In this document: positions 1-25,038 of the stretch, one piece after another
Layout of the letters: each line of letters begins with the position of its first letter
Position numbering within the stretch: the first letter of the stretch is position 1
Virus record (IMG/VR): IMGVR_UViG_2724679539_000001
Span: 1 to 25,496 of that record
From: a virus
Taxonomy: Duplodnaviria > Heunggongvirae > Uroviricota > Caudoviricetes
Strand: one strand, 5' to 3'
DNA length: 25,496 bases
Translations under genes and position numbers: made by a program
The notes under the pieces: model-generated
What the model was told of the DNA's origin: nothing
What the model saw: the letters and a program-made list of their open reading frames with translations, nothing else
The model's database searches: none

Positions 1-458
1 TTTCTAACCTGTACGGTATGGTCACCGGGATGGCGGAAGATCTGCAGAGTCTGGTCGGTGGAACGGTGGTCCGGCGTAAGGTTTACGCCCGTTTTCTGGA
101 TGCGGTGAACTTCGTCAACGGAAACAGTGGCGCCGATCCGGAGCAGGAGGTGATCAGCCGCTGGCGCATTGAGCAGTGCAGCGAACTGAGCGCGGTGAGT
201 GCCTCTTTTGTACTGTCCACGCCGACGGAAACGGACGGTGCTGTTTTTCCGGGACGTATCATGCTGGCCAACACCTGCACCTGGACCTATCGCGGTGATG
301 AGTGCGGTTATCACGGTCCGGCAGTCGCGGATGAATATGACCAGCCAACGTCCGATATCACGAAGGATAAATGCAGCAAATGCCTGAGCGGTTGTAAGTT
401 CCGCAATAACGTCGGCAACTTTGGCGGCTTCCTTTCCATTAACAAACTTTCGCAGTAA
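1..458 (+). CDS. L: Tail tip protein L (lambda gpL-like), 5'-truncated by the window edge; reading frame begins at position 3
   Basis: Translation SNLYGMVTGMAEDLQSLVGG... to ...FLSINKLSQ matches the C-terminal ~150 aa of lambda L as recalled, including the Cys-rich region (CGYHG, CSKCLSGC). Gene order L-K-I-J follows. Confidence 0.88.
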   Translation, partial: SNLYGMVTGMAEDLQSLVGGTVVRRKVYARFLDAVNFVNGNSGADPEQEVISRWRIEQCSELSAVSASFVLSTPTETDGAVFPGRIMLANTCTWTYRGDECGYHGPAVADEYDQPTSDITKDKCSKCLSGCKFRNNVGNFGGFLSINKLSQ

Positions 459-463
459 ATCCC

Positions 464-1207
464 ATGACACAGACAGAATCAGCGATTCTGGCGCACGCCC
501 GGCGATGTGCGCCAGCGGAGTCGTGCGGCTTCGTGGTAAGCACGCCGGAGGGGGAAAGATATTTTCCCGGCGTGAATATTTCCGGTGAGCCGGAGGATTA
601 TTTCCGGATGGCTCCGGAGGACTGGCTGCAGGCAGAAATGCAGGGTGAGATTGTGGCGCTGGTCCACAGCCACCCCGGTGGTCTGCCCTGGCAGAGTGAG
701 GCTGACCGGCGGCTGCAGGTGCAGAGTGATTTGCCGTGGTGGCTGGTCTGCCGGGGGGCGATTCATAAGTTCCGCTGTGTGCCGCATCTCACCGGGCGGC
801 GCTTTGAGCACGGGGTGACGGACTGTTACACGCTGTTCCGGGATGCTTATCATCTGGCGGGGATTGAGATGCCGGATTTTCATCGCGGGGATGACTGGTG
901 GCGTCACGGTCAGAATCTCTATCTGGATAATCTGGAGGCCACAGGGCTGTATCAGGTGCCGTTGTCAGCGGCGCAGCCGGGCGATGTGCTGCTGTGCTGT
1001 TTTGGTTCATCGGTGCCGAATCATGCCGCCATTTACTGTGGTGACGGTGAGCTGCTGCACCATATTCCTGAACAACTGAGCAAACGAGAGAGGTACACCG
1101 ACAAATGGCAGCGACGCACACACTCCCTCTGGCGTCACCGGGCATGGCGCGCATCTGCCTTTACGGGGATTTACAACGATTTGGTCGCCGCATCGACCTT
1201 CGTGTGA
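464..1207 (+). CDS. K: Tail tip assembly protein K (lambda gpK-like; MPN/JAMM plus NlpC/P60 domains)
   Basis: 247-aa ORF with JAMM motif HSHPGGLPWQSEAD and an NlpC/P60-like Cys/His region (DCYTLFRDAYHLAG ... HAAIY). Overlaps I by 103 bp as in lambda. Classic lambda annotation starts at the internal ATG at 608 (199 aa). Confidence 0.88.
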   Translation: MTQTESAILAHARRCAPAESCGFVVSTPEGERYFPGVNISGEPEDYFRMAPEDWLQAEMQGEIVALVHSHPGGLPWQSEADRRLQVQSDLPWWLVCRGAIHKFRCVPHLTGRRFEHGVTDCYTLFRDAYHLAGIEMPDFHRGDDWWRHGQNLYLDNLEATGLYQVPLSAAQPGDVLLCCFGSSVPNHAAIYCGDGELLHHIPEQLSKRERYTDKWQRRTHSLWRHRAWRASAFTGIYNDLVAASTFV

Positions 1208-1776
1208 AAACGGGGGCTGAAGCCATCCGGGCACTGGCCACACAGCTCCCGGCGTTTCGTCAGAAACTGAGCGACGGCTGGTATCAGGTACGGATTGCCG
1301 GGCGGGACGTCAGCACGTCCGGGTTAACGGCGCAGTTACATGAGACTCTGCCTGATGGCGCTGTGATTCATATTGTTCCCAGAGTCGCCGGGGCCAAGTC
1401 AGGTGGCGTATTCCAGATTGTCCTGGGGGCTGCCGCCATTGCCGGATCATTCTTTACCGCCGGAGCCACCCTTGCAGCATGGGGGGCAGCCATTGGGGCC
1501 GGTGGTATGACCGGCATCCTGTTTTCTCTCGGTGCCAGTATGGTCCTCGGTGGTGTGGCGCAGATGCTGGCACCGAAAGCCAGAACTCCCCGTACACAGA
1601 CAACGGATAACGGTAAGCAGAACACCTATTTCTCCTCACTGGATAACATGGTTGCCCAGGGCAATGTTCTGCCTGTTCTGTACGGGGAAATGCGCGTGGG
1701 GTCACGCGTGGTTTCTCAGGAGATCAGCACGGCAGACGAAGGGGACGGTGGTCAGGTTGTGGTGATTGGTCGCTGA
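1105..1776 (+). CDS. I: Tail tip assembly protein I (lambda gpI-like)
   Basis: 223-aa ORF beginning MAATHTLPLASPGMARICLYGDLQRF, with a Gly/Ala-rich hydrophobic C-terminal half. Position between K and J and the 60-bp gap to J match my recollection of lambda. Confidence 0.88.
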   Translation: MAATHTLPLASPGMARICLYGDLQRFGRRIDLRVKTGAEAIRALATQLPAFRQKLSDGWYQVRIAGRDVSTSGLTAQLHETLPDGAVIHIVPRVAGAKSGGVFQIVLGAAAIAGSFFTAGATLAAWGAAIGAGGMTGILFSLGASMVLGGVAQMLAPKARTPRTQTTDNGKQNTYFSSLDNMVAQGNVLPVLYGEMRVGSRVVSQEISTADEGDGGQVVVIGR

Positions 1777-1794
1777 TGCAAAATGTTTTATGTG

Positions 1795-1816
1795 AAACCG
1801 CCTGCGGGCGGTTTTG
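1795..1816 (+). terminator. Stem-loop between I and J (AAACCGCC-tgcg-GGCGGTTT, then TGTCATTT)
   Basis: 8-bp inverted repeat with 4-nt loop and a T-rich tail in the I-J gap; could be an attenuator or RNA structure. Mirror copy at 23681-23702 on the minus strand. Confidence 0.35.
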
Positions 1817-1836
1817 TCATTTATGGAGCGTGAGGA

Positions 1837-4800
1837 ATGAGTAAAGGAAGCAGTAAGGGGCATACCCCGCGCGAAGCGAAGGACAACCTGAAGTCCACGC
1901 AGTTGCTGAGTGTGATCGATGCCATCAGCGAAGGGCCGGTTGAAGGTCCGGTGGATGGATTAAAAAGCGTGCTGCTGAACAGTACGCCGGTGCTGGACAC
2001 TGAGGGGAATACCAACATCTCCGGTGTCACGGTGGTGTTCCGTGCCGGTGAGCAGGAGCAGACACCGCCGGAGGGGTTTGAATCCTCCGGCTCCGAGACG
2101 GTGTTGGGTACGGAAGTGAAATACGACACGCCGATCACCCGCGCCATCACGTCGGCAAACATCGACCGACTGCGCTTTACCTTCGGTGTGCAGGCACTGG
2201 TGGAAACCACCTCAAAGGGGGACCGGAATCCGTCGGAAGTTCGCCTGCTGGTTCAGATACAGCGTAATGGTGGCTGGGTGACGGAAAAAGATATCACCAT
2301 TAAGGGCAAAACCACCTCGCAGTATCTGGCCTCGGTGGTGGTGGATAACCTGCCGCCGCGCCCGTTTAATATCCGGATGCGCAGAATGACGCCGGACAGC
2401 ACCACAGACCAGCTGCAGAACAAAACGCTCTGGTCGTCATACACCGAAATCATCGATGTGAAACAGTGCTACCCGAACACGGCACTGGTCGGCGTGCAGG
2501 TGGATTCGGAGCAGTTCGGCAGCCAGCAGGTGAGCCGTAATTATCATCTTCGCGGGCGCATTCTGCAGGTGCCGTCGAATTATAACCCGCAGACGCGGCA
2601 ATACAGCGGTATCTGGGACGGAACGTTTAAGCCAGCATACAGCAACAACATGGCCTGGTGTCTGTGGGATATGCTGACCCATCCGCGCTACGGCATGGGG
2701 AAACGTCTTGGTGCGGCGGATGTGGACAAATGGGCGCTGTATGTCATCGGCCAGTACTGCGACCAGTCAGTGCCGGACGGCTTTGGCGGCACGGAGCCGC
2801 GCATCACCTGTAATGCGTACCTGACCACACAGCGCAAGGCGTGGGACGTTCTCAGTGATTTCTGCTCGGCGATGCGCTGTATGCCGGTATGGAACGGGCA
2901 GACGCTGACGTTCGTGCAGGACCGACCGTCGGATAAGGCGTGGACCTATAACCGCAGTAATGTGGTGATGCCGGATGATGGCGCGCCGTTCCGCTACAGC
3001 TTCAGCGCCCTGAAAGACCGCCATAATGCCGTTGAGGTGAACTGGATTGACCCGAACAACGGCTGGGAGACGGCGACAGAGCTTGTTGAAGATACGCAGG
3101 CCATTGCCCGTTACGGTCGTAATGTTACGAAGATGGATGCCTTTGGCTGTACCAGCCGGGGGCAGGCACACCGCGCCGGGCTGTGGCTGATTAAAACGGA
3201 GCTGCTGGAGACGCAGACCGTGGATTTCAGCGTCGGCGCAGAAGGGCTTCGCCATGTACCGGGCGATGTTATTGAAATCTGCGATGATGACTATGCCGGT
3301 ATCAGCACCGGTGGTCGTGTGCTGGCGGTGAACAGCCAGACCCGGACGCTGACGCTCGACCGTGAAATCACGCTGCCATCCTCCGGTACCACGCTGATAA
3401 GCCTGGTTGACGGAAGTGGCAATCCGGTCAGCGTGGAGGTTCAGTCCGTCAACGACGGCGTGAAGGTAAAAGTGAGCCGTGTTCCTGAGGGTGTTGCTGA
3501 ATACAGCGTATGGGGGCTGAAGCTGCCGACGCTGCGCCAGCGCCTGTTCCGCTGCGTGAGTATCCGTGAGAACGACGACGGCACGTATGCCATCACCGCC
3601 GTGCAGCATGTGCCGGAAAAAGAGGCCATCGTGGATAACGGGGCGCACTTTGACGGCGAACAGAGTGGCACGGTGAATGGTGTCACGCCGCCAGCGGTGC
3701 AGCACCTGACCGCAGAAGTCACTGCAGACAGCGGGGAATATCAGGTGCTGGCGCGATGGGACACACCGAAGGTGGTGAAGGGCGTGAGCTTCCTGCTCCG
3801 TCTGACCGTAACAGCGGACGACGGCAGTGAGCGGCTGGTCAGCACGGCCCGGACGACGGAAACCACATACCGCTTCACGCAACTGGCGCTGGGGAACTAC
3901 AGGCTGACAGTCCGGGCGGTAAATGCGTGGGGGCAGCAGGGCGATGCGGCGTCGGTATCGTTCCGGATTGCCGCACCGGCAGCACCGTCGAGGATTGAGC
4001 TGACGCCGGGCTATTTTCAGATAACCGCCACGCCGCATCTTGCCATTTATGACCCGACGGTACAGTTTGAGTTCTGGTTCTCGGAAAAGCGGATTACCGA
4101 TATCAGGCAGGTTGAAACCACAGCCCGCTATCTTGGCACGGCGCTGTACTGGATAGCCGCCAGTATCAATATCAAACCGGGCCATGATTATTATTTTTAC
4201 ATCCGCAGTGTGAACACCGTTGGCAAATCGGCATTTGTGGAGGCTGTTGGCCAGCCGAGTGATGATGCATCCGGCTATCTGGATTTTTTCAAAGGAGAGA
4301 TAGGGAAAAGCCATCTGGCTCAGGAGCTGTGGACGCAGATTGATAACGGTCAGCTTGCGCCTGACCTGGCTGAAATCAGGACGTCCATTACGGATGTCAG
4401 CAATGAAATCACGCAGACCGTCAATAAGAAACTGGAAGACCAGAGTGCGGCAATTCAGCAGATACAGAAGGTTCAGGTTGATACAAATAATAACCTGAAC
4501 AGCATGTGGGCTGTGAAGCTGCAGCAGATGCAGGACGGACGCCTTTATATCGCGGGTATTGGTGCCGGTATTGAGAATACCCCTGACGGTATGCAGAGTC
4601 AGGTGCTGCTGGCGGCGGACAGGATTGCGATGATTAATCCTGCGAATGGCAACACAAAGCCGATGTTTGTTGGTCAGGGCGATCAGATATTTATGAATGA
4701 AGTGTTCCTGAAATATCTGACGGCTCCCACCATTACCAGCGGCGGTAATCCTCCGGCATTTTCCCTGACACCGGACGGGCGGCTGACGGCAAAAAATGCC

Positions 4801-5316
4801 GATATCAGCGGTAACGTGAATGCGAACTCCGGGACGCTCAACAACGTCACGATTAACGAGAACTGCCGGGTTCTGGGAAAACTGTCCGCGAACCAGATTG
4901 AAGGCGATCTCGTTAAAACAGTGGGCAAAGCTTTCCCCCGTGACTCCCGTGCACCGGAACGGTGGCCATCAGGGACCATTACCGTCAGGGTTTATGACGA
5001 TCAGCCGTTTGACCGGCAGATTGTTATTCCAGCGGTGGCTTTCAGCGGTGCCAGACATGAACGGGAGAATAGCGATACTTATTCGTCATGCCGCCTGATA
5101 GTGAAGAAAAACGGGGCTGAAATTTATAACCGAACGGCTCTGGATAATACTCTGATTTACACGGGTGTTATTGATATGCCTGCAGGCAGTGGCGTAATGA
5201 CACTGGAGTTTTCGGTATCAGCATGGTGGGTAAATGGCTGGTATCCCACAGCAAGTATCAGCGATTTGCTGGTTGTGGTGATGAAGAAAGCCACCGCAGG
5301 CATCAGTATCAGCTGA
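1837..5316 (+). CDS. J: Tail tip attachment / host specificity protein J (lambda gpJ-like)
   Basis: 1159-aa ORF starting [34 protein letters not shown], near-identical to the lambda J N-terminus as recalled. Preceded by GAGG RBS. Fibronectin-like central repeats and a C-terminal receptor-binding region. Confidence 0.95.
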
Positions 5317-5335
5317 ATTTTATAACCCCAATACG

Positions 5336-5359
5336 GGCGTCAGAAATGACGCCTTTTTT
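5336..5359 (+). terminator. Rho-independent terminator downstream of J
   Basis: GGCGTCA-gaaa-TGACGCC followed by TTTTTT. Mirror copy at 20138-20161 on the minus strand. Confidence 0.65.
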
Positions 5360-5383
5360 ATTGCAGAAAAGCGAGAGGTAATT

Positions 5384-5983
5384 ATGCGTAAATTATGTGC
5401 TGTTATTCTGTCCGCAGTAGTCTGGCTGGTTGCCGCTGGTACGCCAGCGAGCGCAGCAGAGCATCAGTCCACACTAAGCGCCGGGTATCTTCAGGCCCAT
5501 ACTGATATGCCAGGCAGTGATGACCTGAAGGGCATTAACGTGAAATACCGTTATGAATTTACGGACACGCTGGGGCTGGTGACGTCATTCAGTTATGCCA
5601 ATGCCAAAGATGAGCAAAAAACGCATTACAGCGATACCCGCTGGCATGAAGATTCCGTGCGTAACCGCTGGTTCAGCATGATGGCGGGGCCATCTGTACG
5701 CGTGAATGAATGGTTCAGTGCTTATGCGATGGCAGGTGTGGCTTACAGCCGTGTTTCGACGTTCTCCGGGGATTATCTCCGCGTAACTGACAACAAGGGG
5801 AAAACGCACGATGTGCTGACCGGAAGTGATGACGATCGCCACAGCAACACGTCTCTGGCGTGGGGAGCTGGCGTGCAGTTTAACCCGACCGAATCCGTGG
5901 CCATTGATATTGCTTATGAAGGCTCCGGCAGTGGCGACTGGCGCACTGACGGTTTCATCGTGGGTGTCGGTTATAAGTTCTGA
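5384..5983 (+). CDS. lom: Lom-like outer membrane protein (Ail/Lom/PagC beta-barrel family)
   Basis: 199-aa ORF with signal peptide MRKLCAVILSAVVWLVAAGTPASA and a C-terminal aromatic residue (…VGYKF) typical of OMP barrels. Closely resembles lambda Lom; sits directly after J as in lambda. Confidence 0.9.
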   Translation: MRKLCAVILSAVVWLVAAGTPASAAEHQSTLSAGYLQAHTDMPGSDDLKGINVKYRYEFTDTLGLVTSFSYANAKDEQKTHYSDTRWHEDSVRNRWFSMMAGPSVRVNEWFSAYAMAGVAYSRVSTFSGDYLRVTDNKGKTHDVLTGSDDDRHSNTSLAWGAGVQFNPTESVAIDIAYEGSGSGDWRTDGFIVGVGYKF

Positions 5984-6009
5984 TTAGCCAGGTAACACAG
6001 TGTTATGAC

Positions 6010-6036
6010 AGCCCGCCGGTTCAGGCGGGCTTTTTT
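6010..6036 (+). terminator. Rho-independent terminator downstream of lom
   Basis: AGCCCGCC-ggttca-GGCGGGCT followed by TTTTTT. Mirror copy at 19461-19487 on the minus strand. Confidence 0.7.
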
Positions 6037-6047
6037 GTGGAGTGGAT

Positions 6048-8429
6048 ATGGCAGCAGTAAAAATCTCAGGTGTGCTGAAAGATGGTGCGGGAAAACCAAT
6101 ACAGAACTGCACTATTCAACTGAAGGCAAAGCGTAACAGCACCACGGTACTGGTGAACACGGTGGCCTCTGAAAATCCGGATGAAGCCGGGCGTTACAGC
6201 ATGGATGTTGAGTATGGTCAGTACAGCGTCACCCTGCTGGTTGAAGGTTTTCCGCCTTCACATGCCGGGACCATTACCGTCTATGAAGGTTCCAGACCAG
6301 GTACGCTGAATGATTTTCTCGGTGCCATGACGGAAGATGATGTCATGCCGGAGGCATTGCGTCGTTTTGAGGAAATGGTGGAAGAAGCGGCACGCAACGC
6401 TGAAGCCGCCTCTCAGAGCGCAGCGGCGGCAAAGAAATCCGAAACTGCAGCGGCATCATCGAAGAACGCGGCGAAAACCTCAGAAACGAATGCAGCTAAC
6501 AGCGCACAGGCGGCAGCGGCCTCGCAGACTGCATCGGCAAACTCCGCAACAGCAGCTAAAAAATCAGAAACCAACGCGAAAAATAGCGAGACAGCCGCAA
6601 AGACGAGCGAAACCAACGCAAAGTCCAGCCAGACGGCAGCGAAGACCAGCGAAACGAATGCCAAAGCCAGTGAAACTGCGGCAAAAAACAGCCAGGTTGC
6701 AGCAGCCCAAAGCGAGAGCGCGGCAGCCGGTTCTGCGACTTCAGCAGCTGGATCAGCAACTGCTACGGCTAACAGCCAGAAAGCTGCGAAGACGAGTGAA
6801 ACTAACGCAAAGTCCAGCCAGACGGCAGCGAAGACCAGCGAAACGAATGCCAAAGCCAGTGAAACTGCGGCGAAAAGCAGTCAGGATGCAGCGGCTCAAA
6901 GCGAGAGTGCCGCAGCCAGTTCTGCAAGCGCGGCGGCTGCTTCTGCCACTGCATCAGCCAACAGTCAAAAAGCAGCAAAAACCAGTGAAACCAATGCAAA
7001 GGCGAGCGAGACTGCGGCGGCTAACTCGGCGAAAGCATCCGCAGCAAGCCAGACGGCTGCAAAAGCAAGTGAAGACGCAGCCAGAGAGTATGCAAGCCAG
7101 GCTGCGGAGCCGTATAAACAAGTTTTGCAGCCGCTTCCCGATGTGTGGATACCATTTAACGATTCGCTGGATATGATTACGGGCTTTTCGCCGTCATATA
7201 AAAAGATTGTTATTGGTGATGATGAAATAACGATGCCTGGCGATAAGGTTGTAAAGTTTAAACGCGCATCAAAAGCAACTTACATTAATAAATCTGGTGT
7301 GCTGACAGAGGCTGCCATTGACGAGCCACGGTTTGAACGTGATGGCCTGCTTATTGAGGGGCAAAGAACTAATCTTCTGCTTAATTCAACAAATCCATCT
7401 AAATGGAATAAGTCAGGCAATCTGGAACTCACAGAAATATCCACGGATTCATTTAATTTTACTTATGGGAGATTTACTGTAAAAGATACTCTTATTGATC
7501 AGACAAGTGCGATTAATATCGCAACGGTTTCTGGCAGTAAAGGATTTGATGTCACAGGTGATGAAAAATATGTGACCATTTCATGCCGTGTCAGAAGTGA
7601 TGTTGAAAATATAAGGTGTCGTTTAAGATTTGAACATCATGATGGTTCTACTTACACTTTTTTGGGAGATGCTTACCTCAATTTATCAACACTTGTAATT
7701 GATAAGACTGGTGGTGCAGCAAATCGTATTATTGCAAAAGCTGTAAAAGATGAGGCTACTGGTTGGATTTTCTATCAGGCTACAATTAATGCACTAGATA
7801 CAGAGAGCATGATTGGTGCGATGGTTCAATATGCTCCAGTAAAAGGTTCAGGCACAGCATCTGGAGACTATCTGGATATCGCAACTCCACAAGTGGAAGG
7901 TGGATCAAGTGCTTCGTCATTTATTGTAACTGATATAACTGCAAGCACTCGCGCAAGCGATATGGTGACAGTCCCAATCAAGAATAACCTTTATAATCTT
8001 CCTTTTACGGTTCTTTGTGAGGTACATAAGAACTGGTATAAAACGCCAAATGCAGCACCGCGTGTTTTTGATACCGGCGGTCATCAAACCGGAGCGGCTA
8101 TTATTCTTGGCTTCGGTCGTTCAACAGATTACGACGGATTTCCTTATTGTGATATAGGTTTGGCTAACAGACGGGTAAACGAAAACGCATCGCTTGAAAA
8201 AATGGTTATGGGGATGCGTGTAAAGTCAGATCAGTCTACGTGCTCAGTAAGTAACGGGCGTATATCCAGCGAAACAAAAACCACATGGTCTTATATTCAG
8301 AACACCGCAATTATCCGTATTGGAGGCCAGACTACAGCCGGGTTACGTCATTTGTTTGGACACATCAGGAATTTCAGAATATGGCATAAAGAATTAACTG
8401 ATGCGCAAATGGGGGAGAGTATTAAATGA
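6048..8429 (+). CDS. stf: Side tail fibre protein with Stf-like N-terminal domain, Ala/Ser/Thr-rich repeat shaft and divergent AT-rich C-terminal domain
   Basis: N-terminus MAAVKISGVLKDGAGKPIQNCTIQLKAKRNSTTVLVNTVASENPDEAGRYSMDVEYGQYSV matches lambda Stf as recalled. The ORF track starts at GTG 6042; ATG at 6048 with GGAG 5 nt upstream is the more likely start. Confidence 0.85.
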   Translation: MAAVKISGVLKDGAGKPIQNCTIQLKAKRNSTTVLVNTVASENPDEAGRYSMDVEYGQYSVTLLVEGFPPSHAGTITVYEGSRPGTLNDFLGAMTEDDVMPEALRRFEEMVEEAARNAEAASQSAAAAKKSETAAASSKNAAKTSETNAANSAQAAAASQTASANSATAAKKSETNAKNSETAAKTSETNAKSSQTAAKTSETNAKASETAAKNSQVAAAQSESAAAGSATSAAGSATATANSQKAAKTSETNAKSSQTAAKTSETNAKASETAAKSSQDAAAQSESAAASSASAAAASATASANSQKAAKTSETNAKASETAAANSAKASAASQTAAKASEDAAREYASQAAEPYKQVLQPLPDVWIPFNDSLDMITGFSPSYKKIVIGDDEITMPGDKVVKFKRASKATYINKSGVLTEAAIDEPRFERDGLLIEGQRTNLLLNSTNPSKWNKSGNLELTEISTDSFNFTYGRFTVKDTLIDQTSAINIATVSGSKGFDVTGDEKYVTISCRVRSDVENIRCRLRFEHHDGSTYTFLGDAYLNLSTLVIDKTGGAANRIIAKAVKDEATGWIFYQATINALDTESMIGAMVQYAPVKGSGTASGDYLDIATPQVEGGSSASSFIVTDITASTRASDMVTVPIKNNLYNLPFTVLCEVHKNWYKTPNAAPRVFDTGGHQTGAAIILGFGRSTDYDGFPYCDIGLANRRVNENASLEKMVMGMRVKSDQSTCSVSNGRISSETKTTWSYIQNTAIIRIGGQTTAGLRHLFGHIRNFRIWHKELTDAQMGESIK
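6596..6929 (+). repeat. Internal tandem direct repeat inside stf (period 189 bp = 63 aa; two near-identical units with a 63-bp perfect core)
   Basis: 6621-6683 is identical to 6810-6872 (aagtccagccagacggcagcgaagaccagcgaaacgaatgccaaagccagtgaaactgcggc); flanks are ~85% identical. Encodes repeating KTSETNAK(A/S)S(E/Q)TAAK motifs. Confidence 0.85.
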
Positions 8430-8707
8430 AAGATTTAACACTCAAATTTGCAGACAGGGCCGACTTTTCGGCCTTTATGGAGAGTGCTGGCTATTATGAT
8501 GACGAGTCGATGCAGGATGATATTCTTATTGACGTGATAGGTAACGTGTACAAAGAAACCGGAGAACTTACTGAAGATGGCGAGCCGGTATGTGTTAAGG
8601 AAGACGGATATTTTGTAAACGTGCGCATCATTAATGATGTGAAAACACCGTCAATATTCGATGAATACGTGGTTGCTGTTGAGCATCAACTTCGTGGCTG
8701 GATGTGA
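8426..8707 (+). CDS. Hypothetical protein (93 aa), acidic, translationally coupled to stf (ATGA overlap)
   Basis: ORF with ATG overlapping the stf stop; AT-rich codon usage like its neighbours; no recognisable motif. Confidence 0.55.
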   Translation: MKDLTLKFADRADFSAFMESAGYYDDESMQDDILIDVIGNVYKETGELTEDGEPVCVKEDGYFVNVRIINDVKTPSIFDEYVVAVEHQLRGWM

Positions 8708-8716
8708 GGAAGAATA

Positions 8717-9757
8717 ATGGCTACATCGACAGTAATTCCTGATGACATCAAAACGCTAAAATCCGATGTTAGCAAATTAAAAAACGATCAAGGAAGCTAC
8801 GTAACAAAATCATATGTAGACAGCAAAAATGAAACCGTTAATGACTGGTCTGCTGCATGGTATCAGCAGGTACTGCCAACTAGCGGAGCTATATTTGGGC
8901 GAAAACTTCGCTCAACTCACAGGACGGCAGGTGTTGAGGATGCGTATTGCGAACTATACCTTAAAAAATGGATAGACAGCCCAGGGAACGCAATGGCGCG
9001 CCTTAACCTGAACGATAACGGTGAAAATATTTGCTGGGATTTTACCAACCTTTACGGCGGAACAATGATCTTCCCTGGTACTTCAGGCTATCTGAAAATG
9101 GGGAACTGTCTCATGTCGTATAGTGTGCGGGGAAGTAACGCGCTTATTAAGTTTGATTACACCGACACATTACAGATCAAATATGCTAATCATGGGTCAA
9201 CCATGACATTAACCACACAGGGATCCGCTCACGCTGGCGTAACAACTAGACTATGGGGTAATTCTAGCCGTCCGGTTGTTTATGAAGTTGGCGTAGATGA
9301 GGCTCTGTATATGTTCTACGCACAGAAAACTACCAGCAATACCTACGAATTAACGGTTAACGGCGCGTGCAATGCAAGTGCATTTAATCAAGGCTCTGAC
9401 CGGGATCTGAAAGACAATATTCAGGTGATCGATAATGCAACCGACCGCATTCGTAAAATGAACGGCTATACATACACGCTTAAAGAAAACGGTATGCCTT
9501 ACGCTGGTGTTATTGCACAAGAAACCCTGGAAGCCATCCCCGAAGCCGTAGGGTCTATGATGAAATATCCAGACGGCGGGAGTGGATTAGATGGAGAAGA
9601 AGGTGAACGGTATTACACAGTAGATTATTCTGGTGTTACTGGCTTGCTTGTTCAGGTAGCCAGAGAGTCGGACGACAGAATAACAGCACTGGAAGAAGAA
9701 AACGCAGAATTAAGACAAAGATTATCTGCAATTGAGGCGGCGCTTGCGTCTAAATAA
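8717..9757 (+). CDS. Tail fibre/tailspike-like protein with C-terminal peptidase S74 intramolecular chaperone (autoproteolytic) domain
   Basis: 346-aa ORF with GAGGA RBS. C-terminal region SDRDLKDNIQVIDNATDRIRKMNGYTYTLKENG...AGVIAQE followed by a coiled-coil tail (ITALEEENAELRQRLSAIEAALASK) fits the S74 chaperone signature with a Ser-x4-Lys dyad. Confidence 0.7.
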   Translation: MATSTVIPDDIKTLKSDVSKLKNDQGSYVTKSYVDSKNETVNDWSAAWYQQVLPTSGAIFGRKLRSTHRTAGVEDAYCELYLKKWIDSPGNAMARLNLNDNGENICWDFTNLYGGTMIFPGTSGYLKMGNCLMSYSVRGSNALIKFDYTDTLQIKYANHGSTMTLTTQGSAHAGVTTRLWGNSSRPVVYEVGVDEALYMFYAQKTTSNTYELTVNGACNASAFNQGSDRDLKDNIQVIDNATDRIRKMNGYTYTLKENGMPYAGVIAQETLEAIPEAVGSMMKYPDGGSGLDGEEGERYYTVDYSGVTGLLVQVARESDDRITALEEENAELRQRLSAIEAALASK

Positions 9758-9763
9758 TATTAA

Positions 9764-9786
9764 GGGGCCGAGCGCCCCGTTTTATT
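9764..9786 (+). terminator. Candidate terminator hairpin downstream of the S74-domain gene
   Basis: GGGGC-cgagc-GCCCC followed by GTTTTATT. Mirror copy at 15711-15733 on the minus strand. Confidence 0.45.
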
Positions 9787-9793
9787 GGGTAGG

Positions 9794-10087
9794 ATGAAAA
9801 TGGATATAACACCTTTCCTTCATGCACTTTGTGCTGTGGCTGCGCAGCTACTGATTGGTCTTTTTACCGGGAACTGGGCTTACGGTGCGATAGCCGGTTG
9901 TACGTTCTTCATCGCTCGTGAACATACCCAGGCAGAATATCGCTGGATTGAAATGTTCGGGCATGGCAAGCGTATGAATATGCCGTGGTGGGGCGGTTTT
10001 GATCCTCGCGCGTGGGATGTAGCAAGCCTGATGGATTTTGCTGTGCCGGTGGTGGCGTGTTTACTTGTATTTATATTTTTTGAATAA
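9794..10087 (+). CDS. Hypothetical small membrane protein (two predicted transmembrane segments)
   Basis: The ORF track begins at TTG 9785; ATG at 9794 or 9800 (GGTAGGA 5 nt upstream of 9800) is more plausible. Hydrophobic segments FLHALCAVAAQLLIGLF and VPVVACLLVFIFF. Confidence 0.55.
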   Translation: MKMDITPFLHALCAVAAQLLIGLFTGNWAYGAIAGCTFFIAREHTQAEYRWIEMFGHGKRMNMPWWGGFDPRAWDVASLMDFAVPVVACLLVFIFFE

Positions 10088-10092
10088 AATTA

Positions 10093-10119
10093 AGACCCCA
10101 TCTATAACTGATGGGGTCT
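10093..10119. terminator. Bidirectional terminator-like hairpin between the convergent membrane-protein gene and sopB
   Basis: Perfect 10-bp inverted repeat AGACCCCATC-tataact-GATGGGGTCT with A/T-rich flanks on both sides. Mirror copy at 15378-15404. Confidence 0.5.
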
Positions 10120-10135
10120 ATTCTATTTTCTGCTA

Positions 10136-11125
10136 TTAGTTATTTTTTACATCGGAAGAATTTCCAAACGCCTCCTCAAGAATAGATTCAATTTTACTCA
10201 TTAGGTGCGATGGTATTTTTCTGTTATCTAATTTTAATGTTGTGAAATTTTTCCCATATTTCGCCACAACACCGTCTCCATATTTCTTTTCCCTTTTCTC
10301 TCCATGTGAATTGTTTTTCTCAACAATAATGAAATCATGAAGAGCCTGTATTATTCTTTGCGCATCTAAACTTTCACCTGATTTTTTCATCCTCAGCAAC
10401 TGAGATGCAGCATTTTTCATGGCTGCTTCCTGTCCCTGATATGCTTTAAAAAGAGCGTCTCCTGCTCTGGCTGATAACTCACCAGGATGGTTAAATATTG
10501 CCAATATATCTTTAGGTAAACCGGCTGTATTAATACATCGGCTGATAATATTTCTATCCACGCCTTCGGCTTCAGCTAAAGATTTTACGTTACCGTCAAA
10601 TTCATGGAGCCTTCGCAGGTATCTTTTCCCCCTTTCATAGGCGCTGATAGGTCTATAGTCGTTGCCTATCTGCGATAACCATTGCATTTGTTCATCATCT
10701 AAATCGCCAATAAGAACACGATAATCGCATCCAGTTATAATGGCTGCTTTACGTCTTCGAGAACCATCAGCTACTTCAACAATACCTGACACTTTTCTTG
10801 CGAAAGCCGGATTTTGTTGCCCAGAAGTTAGAAAAGATGGAATTAAATCAGCTAGAGAAGATTCATTTAATAAATCTTGATCACGCTCATTACCTAGCCA
10901 TACCATTGTTGCCATTTCTACTTTATCTGCGGGGATCGTCTCTAACTTAAAGTTAACATTACGTCCGCATACTGGCAAAGTTATGCTATTACCGGTTAAT
11001 GAACTCAGTTGACGTTTTAAATCACCAACCATAGGTGATACCGGCTGATGTTCAGGTGCATGATGATTATTACTCATAATGCGATTAATATCCGGAGCAT
11101 TTTTTAGAAGAGAGCGTTGTTTCAT
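10136..11125 (-). CDS. sopB: Partition protein SopB (ParB family, type Ia)
   Basis: 329-aa ORF. N-terminal two-thirds resemble F-plasmid SopB (ITLPVCGR, WxGNERDQ, GQQ.PAF, DGSRRRKAA, NDYRP.SAYERG, FSHPGELSA-like motifs); the C-terminus is divergent. ATG overlaps the sopA stop. Confidence 0.9.
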   Translation of the reverse strand: MKQRSLLKNAPDINRIMSNNHHAPEHQPVSPMVGDLKRQLSSLTGNSITLPVCGRNVNFKLETIPADKVEMATMVWLGNERDQDLLNESSLADLIPSFLTSGQQNPAFARKVSGIVEVADGSRRRKAAIITGCDYRVLIGDLDDEQMQWLSQIGNDYRPISAYERGKRYLRRLHEFDGNVKSLAEAEGVDRNIISRCINTAGLPKDILAIFNHPGELSARAGDALFKAYQGQEAAMKNAASQLLRMKKSGESLDAQRIIQALHDFIIVEKNNSHGEKREKKYGDGVVAKYGKNFTTLKLDNRKIPSHLMSKIESILEEAFGNSSDVKNN

Positions 11126-12291
11126 TCTTCGTTCTCCCAGCGAGGTTTTATTAGATCATCAAAAATTTCTCGACAAACAGGGTCCCATATAGAGACGGCA
11201 TTTCTCCATGCATTAAGTGTTGAACGCTGGTTTGCCGCTTGTTCAAATACTGTTCGCATTTTTATCTGACCTTTACCTACTTCATCGGTAACGCGTACAA
11301 CCTGACGTAATACCATTGATCCCCATGTATTTCTTATTTGCTCTTCCATCCATCGTGATTGATTTCCTGTAGTGAGACTATATTTAGTCAGAAGCAAGCG
11401 AACGGTCGGCTCAAATCCGCCTAGGTCAACGCTTTCTAGGAGATCGAGAAGCATTGTGAAAAACTGTAGAACAGAGGCGTAATCAAATAATTCTGCAGGG
11501 GTAGCAACAACGATAACGTCAGCTGCGCAAACAACGTTAATGGTTCCTGTACCGAGGTTTGGAGCACTATCTATAACGATAACATCGTAGTTATCCCAAA
11601 CTGATTCTATAGCTGCGCGTAGCATCAGGTGAGGAGGGTGAGGCAATTTACCCTGAGCATGATATTGCATGAGATCTGTTTCTATACGGTGTAAAGCTAG
11701 GCAGCTAGGAATAATGTCCAGTCCAGGCCAGCATGTTGGTTTTATAGCATATTCAGCGTTATCGCGTTCGCCCAAGTAAAATGGCAGTAAAGTATCCTCG
11801 GCATGTATATGTAAATCAGGTACATAACCGTGATACATGGAGGCTGTTCCCTGAGGATCGTTACCTTCAACTAAAAGAACACGATGACCTTGTAATGCTA
11901 GCCATTGTGCCTGATGTACTGCAGACGATGTTTTATAAACTCCGCCTTTGTGTGACATAACAGCAAGCACAACTGGGTTTTTATCTTGTGGCCGTTGGTT
12001 TGGGTTGCCAAAAACAGCTCGCATACTATTGATTTGATCTATGGTATAACCGGCACGACGTTCAACTCTTCCTCTCATTTCAAAGTCAGGTGCAGGTAAA
12101 CGCCCGTTCTTCTCAGCATCTCTTATTGCTTGAGGAGTTACACCAATTAAATCTGCTACTTCAGTTATCCCCCATCTACGCGTGATACGCCGAGCTTCAG
12201 GACTATCATCACCGAATTGAGCTATAGCAATTGCTTGGGTCATTTCTTGACCGCGCGTAACACAATCTTGTAATAACTTTTTCAAAGACAT
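11122..12291 (-). CDS. sopA: Partition ATPase SopA (ParA family, type Ia with N-terminal HTH extension)
   Basis: 389-aa ORF with deviant Walker A KGGVYKTS and a long N-terminal extension. High similarity to F/N15 SopA as recalled (LLVEGNDPQGTASMYHG, IDSAPNLG, KGQIRMRTVFEQA-like blocks). GGAG RBS. Confidence 0.95.
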   Translation of the reverse strand: MSLKKLLQDCVTRGQEMTQAIAIAQFGDDSPEARRITRRWGITEVADLIGVTPQAIRDAEKNGRLPAPDFEMRGRVERRAGYTIDQINSMRAVFGNPNQRPQDKNPVVLAVMSHKGGVYKTSSAVHQAQWLALQGHRVLLVEGNDPQGTASMYHGYVPDLHIHAEDTLLPFYLGERDNAEYAIKPTCWPGLDIIPSCLALHRIETDLMQYHAQGKLPHPPHLMLRAAIESVWDNYDVIVIDSAPNLGTGTINVVCAADVIVVATPAELFDYASVLQFFTMLLDLLESVDLGGFEPTVRLLLTKYSLTTGNQSRWMEEQIRNTWGSMVLRQVVRVTDEVGKGQIKMRTVFEQAANQRSTLNAWRNAVSIWDPVCREIFDDLIKPRWENEE

Positions 12292-12312
12292 ACTGTCATC
12301 TCCAGCTTATAA

Positions 12313-12390
12313 CTTTGCTTAATAATTATTGCTTTGCATATTTCTAGCAAATTGACATAGAAAAAGCAAAGTAAAACAAAAAAGGCAAAG
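12313..12390 (-). promoter_or_regulatory. Putative sopAB promoter/operator region with four CTTTGC/GCAAAG hexamers
   Basis: Hexamers at 12313-12318, 12332-12337, 12366-12371 and 12385-12390, immediately upstream of sopA. F SopA is known to autoregulate via CTTTGC repeats overlapping its promoter. Exact -35/-10 not resolved. Confidence 0.45.
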
Positions 12391-12570
12391 ACGAAGATTT
12401 GAACAAAATCATCTTTTGTTTTATCCCTTAAATGCAAAAAAAAACAACGGCAAGATCATAACAAATTGATAATAAAGGATTTTTTAAAAGAAAGGAAATC
12501 GTATAAAACTAGTGAAACATGATGAAAATCATCAATGAGATACGTTTCCTCTATTTATTCTCCTAATCCT

Positions 12571-12720
12571 CACCAACAAAAGAACACAATCAAAGATCGT
12601 AAAACAACAATAATAATTCACACAAAATAAAGAACACAAATACAGAAAACAACAACACAATAAAAACAAGAGAACACAAGCTATAAATATTACACCAATA
12701 GAGAACACTAATCAAGAACA
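12571..12720. repeat. Array of AGAACACA(A) direct repeats flanking the telomere palindrome (left arm)
   Basis: AGAACACAAT at 12581-12590, AGAACACAAA at 12631-12640, AACAACACAA at 12651-12660, AGAACACAAG at 12671-12680, GAGAACACTA at 12701-12710, and GAACA at 12716-12720 abutting the palindrome. Confidence 0.6.
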
Positions 12721-12776
12721 TATCAGCACATAATTTCCCATTATACGCGCGTATAATGGGAAATTATGTGCTGATA
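12721..12776. other. 56-bp perfect palindrome at the symmetry axis; putative protelomerase target / hairpin telomere (telRL/telO-like)
   Basis: Sequence TATCAGCACATAATTTCCCATTATACGCGCGTATAATGGGAAATTATGTGCTGATA. The central 22 bp match the N15 telO core as I recall it; the flanking arms differ from N15 at a few positions. Sits immediately beyond sopA, as telL does in N15. Confidence 0.75.
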
Positions 12777-12926
12777 TGTTCTTGATTAGTGTTCTCTATT
12801 GGTGTAATATTTATAGCTTGTGTTCTCTTGTTTTTATTGTGTTGTTGTTTTCTGTATTTGTGTTCTTTATTTTGTGTGAATTATTATTGTTGTTTTACGA
12901 TCTTTGATTGTGTTCTTTTGTTGGTG
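12777..12926. repeat. Mirror copy of the AGAACACA repeat array (right arm, opposite orientation)
   Basis: Reverse complement of 12571-12720 (TGTGTTCT motifs). Confidence 0.6.
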
Positions 12927-13106
12927 AGGATTAGGAGAATAAATAGAGGAAACGTATCTCATTGATGATTTTCATCATGTTTCACTAGTTTTATACGATT
13001 TCCTTTCTTTTAAAAAATCCTTTATTATCAATTTGTTATGATCTTGCCGTTGTTTTTTTTTGCATTTAAGGGATAAAACAAAAGATGATTTTGTTCAAAT
13101 CTTCGT

Positions 13107-13184
13107 CTTTGCCTTTTTTGTTTTACTTTGCTTTTTCTATGTCAATTTGCTAGAAATATGCAAAGCAATAATTATTAAGCAAAG
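13107..13184 (+). promoter_or_regulatory. Putative sopAB promoter/operator region (mirror copy)
   Basis: Mirror of 12313-12390; CTTTGC/GCAAAG hexamers upstream of the second sopA copy. Confidence 0.45.
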
Positions 13185-13205
13185 TTATAAGCTGGAGATG
13201 ACAGT

Positions 13206-14375
13206 ATGTCTTTGAAAAAGTTATTACAAGATTGTGTTACGCGCGGTCAAGAAATGACCCAAGCAATTGCTATAGCTCAATTCGGTGATGATAGTCCTGA
13301 AGCTCGGCGTATCACGCGTAGATGGGGGATAACTGAAGTAGCAGATTTAATTGGTGTAACTCCTCAAGCAATAAGAGATGCTGAGAAGAACGGGCGTTTA
13401 CCTGCACCTGACTTTGAAATGAGAGGAAGAGTTGAACGTCGTGCCGGTTATACCATAGATCAAATCAATAGTATGCGAGCTGTTTTTGGCAACCCAAACC
13501 AACGGCCACAAGATAAAAACCCAGTTGTGCTTGCTGTTATGTCACACAAAGGCGGAGTTTATAAAACATCGTCTGCAGTACATCAGGCACAATGGCTAGC
13601 ATTACAAGGTCATCGTGTTCTTTTAGTTGAAGGTAACGATCCTCAGGGAACAGCCTCCATGTATCACGGTTATGTACCTGATTTACATATACATGCCGAG
13701 GATACTTTACTGCCATTTTACTTGGGCGAACGCGATAACGCTGAATATGCTATAAAACCAACATGCTGGCCTGGACTGGACATTATTCCTAGCTGCCTAG
13801 CTTTACACCGTATAGAAACAGATCTCATGCAATATCATGCTCAGGGTAAATTGCCTCACCCTCCTCACCTGATGCTACGCGCAGCTATAGAATCAGTTTG
13901 GGATAACTACGATGTTATCGTTATAGATAGTGCTCCAAACCTCGGTACAGGAACCATTAACGTTGTTTGCGCAGCTGACGTTATCGTTGTTGCTACCCCT
14001 GCAGAATTATTTGATTACGCCTCTGTTCTACAGTTTTTCACAATGCTTCTCGATCTCCTAGAAAGCGTTGACCTAGGCGGATTTGAGCCGACCGTTCGCT
14101 TGCTTCTGACTAAATATAGTCTCACTACAGGAAATCAATCACGATGGATGGAAGAGCAAATAAGAAATACATGGGGATCAATGGTATTACGTCAGGTTGT
14201 ACGCGTTACCGATGAAGTAGGTAAAGGTCAGATAAAAATGCGAACAGTATTTGAACAAGCGGCAAACCAGCGTTCAACACTTAATGCATGGAGAAATGCC
14301 GTCTCTATATGGGACCCTGTTTGTCGAGAAATTTTTGATGATCTAATAAAACCTCGCTGGGAGAACGAAGAATGA
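13206..14375 (+). CDS. sopA: Partition ATPase SopA (mirror copy)
   Basis: Protein identical to the 11122-12291 ORF. Confidence 0.95.
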   Translation: MSLKKLLQDCVTRGQEMTQAIAIAQFGDDSPEARRITRRWGITEVADLIGVTPQAIRDAEKNGRLPAPDFEMRGRVERRAGYTIDQINSMRAVFGNPNQRPQDKNPVVLAVMSHKGGVYKTSSAVHQAQWLALQGHRVLLVEGNDPQGTASMYHGYVPDLHIHAEDTLLPFYLGERDNAEYAIKPTCWPGLDIIPSCLALHRIETDLMQYHAQGKLPHPPHLMLRAAIESVWDNYDVIVIDSAPNLGTGTINVVCAADVIVVATPAELFDYASVLQFFTMLLDLLESVDLGGFEPTVRLLLTKYSLTTGNQSRWMEEQIRNTWGSMVLRQVVRVTDEVGKGQIKMRTVFEQAANQRSTLNAWRNAVSIWDPVCREIFDDLIKPRWENEE

Positions 14376-15361
14376 AACAACGCTCTCTTCTAAAAAATGC
14401 TCCGGATATTAATCGCATTATGAGTAATAATCATCATGCACCTGAACATCAGCCGGTATCACCTATGGTTGGTGATTTAAAACGTCAACTGAGTTCATTA
14501 ACCGGTAATAGCATAACTTTGCCAGTATGCGGACGTAATGTTAACTTTAAGTTAGAGACGATCCCCGCAGATAAAGTAGAAATGGCAACAATGGTATGGC
14601 TAGGTAATGAGCGTGATCAAGATTTATTAAATGAATCTTCTCTAGCTGATTTAATTCCATCTTTTCTAACTTCTGGGCAACAAAATCCGGCTTTCGCAAG
14701 AAAAGTGTCAGGTATTGTTGAAGTAGCTGATGGTTCTCGAAGACGTAAAGCAGCCATTATAACTGGATGCGATTATCGTGTTCTTATTGGCGATTTAGAT
14801 GATGAACAAATGCAATGGTTATCGCAGATAGGCAACGACTATAGACCTATCAGCGCCTATGAAAGGGGGAAAAGATACCTGCGAAGGCTCCATGAATTTG
14901 ACGGTAACGTAAAATCTTTAGCTGAAGCCGAAGGCGTGGATAGAAATATTATCAGCCGATGTATTAATACAGCCGGTTTACCTAAAGATATATTGGCAAT
15001 ATTTAACCATCCTGGTGAGTTATCAGCCAGAGCAGGAGACGCTCTTTTTAAAGCATATCAGGGACAGGAAGCAGCCATGAAAAATGCTGCATCTCAGTTG
15101 CTGAGGATGAAAAAATCAGGTGAAAGTTTAGATGCGCAAAGAATAATACAGGCTCTTCATGATTTCATTATTGTTGAGAAAAACAATTCACATGGAGAGA
15201 AAAGGGAAAAGAAATATGGAGACGGTGTTGTGGCGAAATATGGGAAAAATTTCACAACATTAAAATTAGATAACAGAAAAATACCATCGCACCTAATGAG
15301 TAAAATTGAATCTATTCTTGAGGAGGCGTTTGGAAATTCTTCCGATGTAAAAAATAACTAA
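14372..15361 (+). CDS. sopB: Partition protein SopB (mirror copy)
   Basis: Protein identical to the 10136-11125 ORF. Confidence 0.9.
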   Translation: MKQRSLLKNAPDINRIMSNNHHAPEHQPVSPMVGDLKRQLSSLTGNSITLPVCGRNVNFKLETIPADKVEMATMVWLGNERDQDLLNESSLADLIPSFLTSGQQNPAFARKVSGIVEVADGSRRRKAAIITGCDYRVLIGDLDDEQMQWLSQIGNDYRPISAYERGKRYLRRLHEFDGNVKSLAEAEGVDRNIISRCINTAGLPKDILAIFNHPGELSARAGDALFKAYQGQEAAMKNAASQLLRMKKSGESLDAQRIIQALHDFIIVEKNNSHGEKREKKYGDGVVAKYGKNFTTLKLDNRKIPSHLMSKIESILEEAFGNSSDVKNN

Positions 15362-15409
15362 TAGCAGAAAATAGAATAGACCCCATCAGTTATAGATGGG
15401 GTCTTAATT

Positions 15410-15703
15410 TTATTCAAAAAATATAAATACAAGTAAACACGCCACCACCGGCACAGCAAAATCCATCAGGCTTGCTACATCCCACGCGCGAGGATCAAAA
15501 CCGCCCCACCACGGCATATTCATACGCTTGCCATGCCCGAACATTTCAATCCAGCGATATTCTGCCTGGGTATGTTCACGAGCGATGAAGAACGTACAAC
15601 CGGCTATCGCACCGTAAGCCCAGTTCCCGGTAAAAAGACCAATCAGTAGCTGCGCAGCCACAGCACAAAGTGCATGAAGGAAAGGTGTTATATCCATTTT
15701 CAT
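15410..15703 (-). CDS. Hypothetical small membrane protein (mirror copy)
   Basis: Mirror of 9794-10087. Confidence 0.55.
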   Translation of the reverse strand: MKMDITPFLHALCAVAAQLLIGLFTGNWAYGAIAGCTFFIAREHTQAEYRWIEMFGHGKRMNMPWWGGFDPRAWDVASLMDFAVPVVACLLVFIFFE

Positions 15704-15739
15704 CCTACCCAATAAAACGGGGCGCTCGGCCCCTTAATA

Positions 15740-16780: not shown

Positions 16781-16789
16781 TATTCTTCC

Positions 16790-17071
16790 TCACATCCAGC
16801 CACGAAGTTGATGCTCAACAGCAACCACGTATTCATCGAATATTGACGGTGTTTTCACATCATTAATGATGCGCACGTTTACAAAATATCCGTCTTCCTT
16901 AACACATACCGGCTCGCCATCTTCAGTAAGTTCTCCGGTTTCTTTGTACACGTTACCTATCACGTCAATAAGAATATCATCCTGCATCGACTCGTCATCA
17001 TAATAGCCAGCACTCTCCATAAAGGCCGAAAAGTCGGCCCTGTCTGCAAATTTGAGTGTTAAATCTTTCAT
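16790..17071 (-). CDS. Hypothetical protein, 93 aa (mirror copy)
   Basis: Protein identical to the 8426-8707 ORF. Confidence 0.55.
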   Translation of the reverse strand: MKDLTLKFADRADFSAFMESAGYYDDESMQDDILIDVIGNVYKETGELTEDGEPVCVKEDGYFVNVRIINDVKTPSIFDEYVVAVEHQLRGWM

Positions 17072-19449: not shown

Positions 19450-19513
19450 ATCCACTCCACAAAAAAGCCCGCCTGAACCGGCGGGCTGTCATAACACTGT
19501 GTTACCTGGCTAA

Positions 19514-20113: not shown

Positions 20114-20180
20114 AATTACCTCTCGCTTTTCTGCAATAAAAAAGGCGTCATTTCTGACGCCCGTATTGGGGTTATAAAAT

Positions 20181-23660: not shown

Positions 23661-23720
23661 TCCTCACGCTCCATAAATGACAAAACCGCCCGCAGGCGGT
23701 TTCACATAAAACATTTTGCA

Positions 23721-25033: not shown

Positions 25034-25038
25034 GGGAT

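Follow-up and report, generated by a model that had tools for sequence, protein, structure and literature searches.

Nested mosaic structure of a predicted side tail fibre gene in an apparent N15-like telomere phage whose tail tip is of the lambda type

The window analysed here is the whole of a 25,496 nucleotide stretch of viral DNA (Caudoviricetes; IMG/VR record IMGVR_UViG_2724679539_000001, positions 1 to 25,496), which we read from its sequence as one end of an N15-like linear plasmid-prophage of Escherichia coli. It carries a side tail fibre gene at 6048–8429 (+ strand) specifying a protein of 793 amino acids. Translation is counted from the ATG at 6048, as RefSeq annotates it on a plasmid with 97% identity; the open reading frame (ORF) is open from a GTG at 6042. 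The order of the arm is lambda-type tail-tip genes, J (domains at 1837–5316, from Pfam and the ORF list), Ail/Lom (5384–5983, from the same sources), the fibre gene, orf93, orf346 and orf100, and then sopB and sopA on the opposite strand. The fibre gene thus takes the position after J and lom that Stf has in the late tail operon of lambda. The sequence comparisons presented below show the gene to be a nested mosaic of anchor, shaft, neck, domain D1, domain D2 and tail.

The Stf N-terminal tail-attachment domain comprises residues 1–134 (6048–6449, +). It is recognized by PF08400 (“prophage tail fibre N-terminal”; residues 5–134, expectation value E 7e-67, with 223.9 bits where the cutoff is 26.6), and a solved 94 amino acid “Tail fiber protein” chain in the PDB (9e7m/9mgh) matches residues 5–97. 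An earlier note, made from the letters of the sequence alone, had called the first 100 or so residues Stf-like. This proved correct and can be extended: lambda orf-401 is homologous to residues 3–329 (58% identity, E 2.5e-71; tblastn), and therefore the shaft is also of the Stf type. The shaft (residues 135–360; 6450–7127, +), recognizable by periodicity, composition and indel classes, is an Ala/Ser/Thr-rich array of seven-residue repeats (KTSETNA/KSSQTAA) in which alanine (37%), serine (19%) and threonine (11%) together account for 67% of the residues, and it probably forms a trimeric coiled coil. Within it Tandem Repeats Finder located, at 6585–7019 (+), a tandem repeat with a period of 189 bp (63 amino acids; 2.3 copies, 82% matches, score 583) and nested 42 and 21 bp periods, as the earlier note had described. 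No Pfam family matched residues 135–793, and a PDB sequence search with the 793 amino acid protein returned only the N-terminal domain and low-complexity matches to the shaft.

The repeat shaft also contains alternative-frame ORFs: one of 279 amino acids at 6337–7176 (+), rich in Arg, Gln and Pro, and one of 146 amino acids at 6413–6853 (−), rich in Ala, Phe and Val. These are most likely by-products of the low-complexity repeat. In lambda the annotated orf206b is similarly placed, on the strand opposite orf-401.

The length of the shaft varies among Stf-type homologs. Measured between the motifs GTLNDF and PLPDVW it falls into ten classes (151, 172, 205, 214, 228, 243, 261, 263, 270 and 277), of which 214 is the most frequent and 277 is that of the window gene. 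The alignment shows that class 214 lacks exactly one 63 amino acid unit and class 151 two (126 amino acids), in both cases within the repeat array; three further classes differ from the window gene by 7, 14 or 49 amino acids. Class 172, whose shaft is divergent in sequence, was left out of the indel comparison. Among close homologs five of eight indel classes are multiples of seven amino acids, and most of the changes in shaft length keep the heptad register. The suggestion that the repeats are a substrate for changes in fibre length is supported by the differences of exactly 63 or 126 residues in the array, which favour recombination between repeats as the process that alters fibre length.

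At about 7126 the base composition breaks. The guanine plus cytosine (GC) content falls from 0.55–0.57 over 6250–7149 to 0.35–0.43 over 7150–8000, so that the sharp drop reported by the earlier note at about 7100–7150 is correctly placed. The GC content at the third codon position (GC3) is 0.50 over the N-terminal domain and shaft and falls beyond them, to 0.375 (neck), 0.229 (middle domain) and 0.373 (C-terminal domain); the corresponding value for J is 0.67. In principle such a break could arise from amino acid content and local selection within one vertically inherited gene, with no horizontal transfer at all. The shaft owes its high GC mostly to the second codon position (GC2 0.68, through Ala/Ser/Thr codons), its GC3 of 0.50 being below that of J, and the description of the shaft as GC-rich holds for overall composition with that qualification. 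The entire right side of the arm is, moreover, AT-rich: the three genes 3' of the fibre gene have GC contents of 0.43–0.48, as had been noted before, and the low GC runs on beyond them through sopB and sopA (0.38 and 0.43) and about 450 bp of DNA at 27–30% GC to position 12748. Composition alone therefore cannot delimit a cassette. Against vertical inheritance stand the fall in GC3 itself, from 0.50 to 0.23, and two pairwise comparisons which locate the exchanges directly. We give this reading almost no credence, since the comparisons that follow already contradict it.

By megablast the 5' part of the gene (window 6048–7387) finds lambdoid and N15-like phages at 94–97% identity, while the 3' part (7126–8418) finds the fibres of T5-like phages, Seuratvirus and Dhillonvirus. 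The virulent Salmonella phage vB_Si_CECAV_FGS017 (Tequintavirus; PP429239.1) has only 7126–8401 in common with the window by pairwise BLAST, at 92.4% nucleotide identity, rising to 96–100% across the 600 bp from 7326 to 7925. The second comparison is with a sibling, the N15-like phage PhiR46_1 (PV340565.1), which is 95.5% identical to the window over 1–7372 and 98.4% identical over 8346–12748. Over 7373–8345 there is no detectable nucleotide similarity between the two; the proteins specified there are about 30% identical, so that the sibling has another allele in exactly this segment. The rest of the arm, including orf93, orf346, orf100, sopBA and an annotated tel site, is shared.

These two sets of boundaries subdivide the distal part of the protein. 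A conserved neck of predicted β-strands (residues 361–442; 7128–7373, +) is followed by D1 (residues 443–636; 7374–7955, +), the most variable β-sandwich and a predicted glycan-binding receptor domain, and by D2 (residues 637–766; 7956–8345, +), a second β-sandwich (strands 283–429 of the structural model described below). The protein ends in a conserved C-terminal tail (residues 767–793 plus the stop codon, ...GGQTTAGLRHLFGHIRNFRIWHKELTDAQMGESIK; 8346–8429, +), in which G, H, R, W, L and Q positions are near-invariant among homologs of 25–35% identity. Over 88 loci, identity to the window allele ranges from 31 to 99% in D1 and from 30 to 98% in D2, the two varying independently of each other, and the neck and tail stay conserved. 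The neck and the tail lie on either side of this variable core, at the observed recombination breakpoints, and serve as its left and right homology arms.

The distal module is widely distributed. It was found in 220 phage records, 201 of them with at least 80% coverage, including the side tail fibre of phage 21 and rV5-like myoviruses, and it sits on at least six other types of N-terminal anchor in siphoviruses and myoviruses, among them the P2 gpH type (PF12571+PF03406). Among 5426 complete E. coli genomes, 176 carry the D1-D2 allele of the window (up to 99% identity, at least 80% coverage), for the most part within prophages of the chromosome. Records in phage databases labelled “Campylobacter phage” (about 135–140 kb) and “Listeria phage” (1.5 kb) carry the fibre domain at 45–74% identity; their resemblance to rV5-like or T5-like coliphage sequence suggests that these are mislabelled or contaminated entries.

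The earlier note had proposed a horizontally acquired receptor-binding cassette made up of the C-terminal domain and the three genes downstream. That the gene is a mosaic is supported: at about 7126 the lambda-type anchor and shaft give way to a distal module common to unrelated phages, with a composition like that of low-GC virulent phages. The extent of the proposed cassette has to be revised. The exchange boundaries lie within the fibre gene (7126–8401 in the comparison with the T5-like phage and 7373–8345 in that with PhiR46_1), and orf93, orf346 and orf100 fall outside the recent swaps; they are 98% identical between the window and PhiR46_1 and have no detectable nucleotide similarity to the T5-like locus. 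In addition, the module as found in T5-like phages and Seuratvirus lacks orf100. As to the origin of the module, the GC3 of T5-like structural genes (0.18–0.33), set against that of the distal module (0.23–0.37), points to an import from low-GC virulent phages, which could have proceeded through the conserved arms by homologous recombination.

The earlier note had named full-length homology to one known tail fibre family, together with uniform composition, as evidence against a mosaic. Such homology does exist: phrog_1419 (“tail protein”) matches the fibre end to end (residues 4–794 against profile positions 1–793 of 793; 1484 bits). That family is itself the same mosaic, and the match does not show the gene to be anything else.

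The statement that the last 430 or so residues have no tip of the Stf/gp37 type was upheld. No Pfam fibre-tip family was found in the fibre protein, and residues 330–793 have no similarity to lambda orf-314 (T4 gp37-like) or to lambda Tfa at E≤1 by tblastn. The NCBIfam model NF048003, the phage head spike fibre (GTA_spike_fiber) domain, matched residues 437–638 with 59.4 bits against a cutoff of 36. An exhaustive search of representative sequences with the distal module gave 2171 clusters at E≤1e-3, many of them full length at 30–35% identity. An AlphaFold 2 (AF2) model of the distal region, computed from an alignment of 51 sequences reaching down to 25–35% identity, has a mean predicted local distance difference test score (pLDDT) of 93.2 and a predicted template modelling score of 0.89. 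It consists of the β-strand neck (pLDDT about 80–97) and β-sandwich (jelly roll) domains superposable on known concanavalin A-like lectin and carbohydrate-binding module domains. A first run with 37 close homologs (75–98% identity) had yielded a mean pLDDT of 51.7, with only the middle domain confident, and the Foldseek result on that model was not relied on.

We infer that D1, perhaps together with D2, is a primary, reversible receptor-binding domain that recognizes O-antigen or similar glycans on the cell surface. The distal domain might instead be an enzyme, such as a GH16-type glycanase of the concanavalin A-like kind or an O-antigen modifier, which degrades surface polysaccharide in the manner of a tailspike, rather than a lectin. 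A GH16-type catalytic motif was searched for in the distal domain and not found, and we consider an enzyme very improbable.

Immediately downstream, the start of orf93 (8426–8707, +; phrog_1361, E 1e-45) overlaps the stop codon of the fibre gene (ATGA). It lies directly 3' of the distal domain in 81 of the 82 loci with room for it, and a six-way alignment of copies from N15-like, lambdoid, T5-like and Seuratvirus phages has 22 invariant positions. The protein has no match in Pfam, NCBIfam or the PDB, and the function proposed for it, that of a putative assembly factor or adaptor, therefore follows from linkage alone. Neither orf93 nor orf346 nor orf100 has a match to Tfa (lambda orf-194), whether by tblastn at E≤1 or through a Pfam Tfa family.

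The next gene, orf346 (8717–9757, +), specifies a second, optional fibre protein, which matches phrog_4563 over its full length and ends in an S74 intramolecular chaperone (PF13884 at residues 227–278, E 9e-14). There is also a weak PDB match to the long tail fibre distal subunit 6f45_A (E 0.003). The protein begins with the peptide MATSTVIPDDI, a motif conserved in five phage groups, including T5-like phages, Seuratvirus and other lambdoid second fibres; the remainder of the protein diverges. The gene order fibre, ORF of about 92 amino acids and second fibre recurs in a Tequintavirus, a Seuratvirus, phage IrisVonRoten and other lambdoid phages. Terminator-like hairpins found by a consensus scan bracket stf, orf93 and orf346: one at 6010–6031 (+) between lom and the fibre gene, with an 8 bp stem containing seven GC pairs and followed by a T-run, and one at 9764–9778 (+) after orf346, which closes the unit. 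Sigma-70-like promoter sites numbered 7, against 15.7 in shuffled sequence, and we claim no internal promoter.

Of 43 loci, 29 have the second fibre; phage 21 lacks it. At every locus with it the neck is 82–100% identical to that of the window; at the loci without it, a single one (L055) excepted, the identity is 73–76%. This tracking of the second fibre by the neck allele suggests a branched fibre, the neck being a candidate docking site. D2 was also considered as the docking site and rejected, as the orf346 product of PhiR46_1 is 98% identical to that of the window despite identities of about 30% in D1 and D2.

Two related systems bear on this arrangement. For phage DT57C there is genetic evidence that the proteins LtfA and LtfB form branched lateral fibres with O-antigen specificity (PMC4728585). 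By their published description the fibres of DT57C and DT571/2 (PMC4728585, PMC10713586) are like the present locus in having two tandem fibre genes, of which the second specifies no domain for attachment to the tail and its product is proposed to be borne by the first, and in the coiled-coil proximal shaft of LtfA with its tandem repeats. The second system is the Tequintavirus IrisVonRoten (Bas32), whose proximal lateral fibre, Gp22, has a predicted galectin-like C-terminal domain, a possible additional receptor-binding domain, and a distal fibre with an intramolecular chaperone predicted to attach to it (PMC11990801, the BASEL completion paper). The distal region of Gp22 has 66.7% protein identity over 98% of that of the window, and Gp22, Gp23 and Gp24 have the order seen here: fibre, 92 amino acid ORF, and second fibre with an MxTxTVIPxDI N-terminus. 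It differs in its anchor, which is T5-type (collar/LtfC-dependent) rather than Stf-type, and in its second fibre, which has 574 amino acids and is T-shaped with two receptor-binding domains (Gp12-like and T5-like), compared with 346 amino acids and 26% identity for the orf346 product.

It could be argued from the same data that the distal module is a structural hub only, a docking platform with a trimerization knob, and that receptor recognition is left to the orf346 product. The strong conservation of neck and C-terminal tail in distant phages would fit such a role, the orf346 product has the classical S74-chaperone architecture of receptor-binding fibres, and the LtfA of DT57C can be a mere attachment site for LtfB on some hosts (PMC4728585). 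The distribution of the genes argues otherwise: 14 of the 43 loci, including phage 21, possess the distal module and orf93 without a second fibre, so that the module functions by itself. Between otherwise near-identical phages D1 and D2 are hypervariable (30–99% identity), the pattern expected of a receptor-binding surface, and the distal fold is that of carbohydrate-binding modules. On balance a purely structural hub seems to us unlikely, though less so than an enzyme.

We prefer the explanation that the gene specifies the proximal subunit of a side (lateral) tail fibre, and that the phage is an N15-like telomere phage whose tail tip is of the lambda type; taken as a whole we regard this as probable. 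If the shaft is a trimeric coiled coil, the number of repeats would set the reach of the fibre. D1, possibly with D2, would make the first, reversible contact with surface glycans; the translationally coupled orf93 would supply a dedicated assembly factor or adaptor in place of the Tfa of lambda; and the orf346 product would trimerize with the aid of its self-cleaving S74 chaperone and dock through its conserved N-terminal peptide onto the neck region. The result would be a branched fibre with two receptor-binding specificities, as has been proposed for T5-like phages.

Several observations weigh against parts of this explanation. The neck of locus L055 is 100% identical to that of the window, and no second fibre was detected there. 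The association between neck and second fibre could also reflect inheritance within lineages, for the loci without a second fibre belong mostly to one phage-21-like group. The LtfA of DT57C ends in an S74 domain of its own and the window fibre has no PF13884 match, so that the comparison with DT57C, whose branched fibre is the only one tested genetically, is incomplete. The AF2 model is that of a monomer and carries no information on trimer or partner contacts. Among the indel classes of close homologs three of the eight (16, 34 and 72 amino acids) are not multiples of seven. Lastly, the direction of transfer is read from composition alone, and the N15-like backbone to the right of the fibre gene is AT-rich as well.

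The closest lambdoid counterparts place the gene in relation to lambda itself. Lambda Stf (orf-401 and orf-314 of lambda PaPa; intact in Ur-lambda) shares the location after J and lom, the PF08400 domain and the Ala/Ser-rich shaft. The present gene differs from the Stf/Tfa pair in having a concanavalin A-like lectin module as its tip, and orf93 where lambda has Tfa. The side tail fibre of phage 21 (CPT_21_22, OL657228.1) and other lambdoid Stf proteins of phrog_1419 have the same Stf N-terminus, shaft and distal module, and in phage 21, as here, the fibre is followed by a 92 amino acid ORF and a small membrane protein. Phage 21 differs in that its distal region is 54% and its neck 76% identical, its shaft is shorter (686 amino acids for the whole protein) and a second S74 fibre is lacking. 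Among isolated phages the closest distal allele is that of the “tail protein” of vB_Si_CECAV_FGS017 (93% protein identity); that phage is otherwise different, being virulent, with 110 kb, a T5-type anchor, and a downstream ORF and second fibre without detectable nucleotide similarity.

The last gene before the partition genes, orf100 (9785–10087, +), specifies a small putative membrane protein matching phrog_1443. Of 43 loci 38 have it, all of them lambdoid or N15-like, and it is missing from the T5-like and Seuratvirus loci; the phage 21 homolog is annotated with two transmembrane segments. It is probably not a fibre component and may be a moron or exclusion gene. A bidirectional terminator-like hairpin lies at 10093–10119, between orf100 and the convergent sopB.

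The window as a whole is a single perfect palindrome. The repeat finder gave arms at 7–12748 and 12749–25490, of 12742 nucleotides each, 100% complementary and with a spacer of 0 nucleotides; the ORF list is mirror-symmetric. The centre at 12748/12749, where ...CCCATTATACGCG meets CGTATAATGGG..., aligns with telRL of N15, and the cut site of the N15 protelomerase (24802/3) coincides with it. The SopA/SopB partition genes adjoin the telomere, contain the Pfam SopB_HTH and ParA domains, and have 73% nucleotide identity to N15 genes 27 and 28. The top matches to the window are E. coli “plasmids” of about 46 kb which end at the palindrome centre, and phage PhiR46_1 has its annotated tel site at that same position. 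All this identifies the window, as judged from its sequence, as the hairpin-telomere end of an N15-like linear plasmid-prophage, sequenced through the covalently closed hairpin. Each gene of the window is therefore shown twice and exists once; at 17068–19449 (−) the other arm shows the fibre gene in mirror image, one physical gene read from its opposite strand. In an N15-like telomere phage the protelomerase TelN would be placed beyond the other telomere arm, outside the window.

The tail-tip region of the element (J-lom-stf; window 1837–10087 was compared) is lambda-like and not N15-like, and no homologs of Stf, orf93, orf346 or orf100 were found in positions 15–27 kb of N15 (NC_001901.1; genes 21–26). 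Because N15-type partition and telomere functions are combined with a lambda-type tail tip, and N15 genes 21–26 include no homologs of these four, the E. coli “N15-like” phages in question appear to be lambda/N15 hybrids in the arm represented by the window.

Within 170 bp of the hairpin tip, at 12581–12710 (mirror 12787–12916), there is a cluster of AGAACACAA-type repeats, each arm having four copies with at most one mismatch and two degenerate ones. The window has 20 matches of this type where 6.4 are expected, and 0 of 100 shuffles reached 20. They may be putative binding sites for the protelomerase or for another telomere-proximal protein, and are presumably comparable to the repeats flanking telRL in N15.

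The plasmid database PLSDB contains records longer than the unit of about 46 kb (CP088430.1, 91525 bp; CP088810.1, 81175 bp; NZ_CP019258.1, 75007 bp; NZ_CP126957.1, 68426 bp), and several of the over-length “plasmids” hold the window arm at two to four places. The unit-length record NZ_CP101200.1 (46173 bp) stops 47 nucleotides before the hairpin tip, yet is annotated as circular. These records look like hairpin read-through or mis-circularized assemblies of linear plasmid-prophages.

Mosaicism of tail fibres is textbook phage biology. PHROGs, RefSeq annotation, the genome of phage 21 and a published structure prediction already contain the present architecture; we infer glycan binding, the branched fibre and what orf93 does. 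The value of the locus lies in its being a well-resolved example, with nested recombination modules, mapped breakpoints and clean copy-number variants of the shaft, and it opens no new question. It also documents near-identical DNA in a temperate plasmid-prophage of E. coli and in a virulent T5-like phage of Salmonella. Two small results may be of use to phage engineers and those who predict host range: the distal domain is almost always accompanied by the 93 amino acid ORF, and the neck allele is associated with the presence of a second fibre. More tentatively, and as a possibility to which we give distinctly less weight than to the explanation preferred above, the distal module and the 93 amino acid protein could form a self-contained, Tfa-independent “plug-in” tip, in which the neck would be a socket for an optional second fibre, its allele setting whether that fibre is present, and the number of repeats would match fibre reach to how thick a glycan layer the host has. 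If true, this would give portable rules for engineering branched fibres on lambda-, T5- and P2-type tails.

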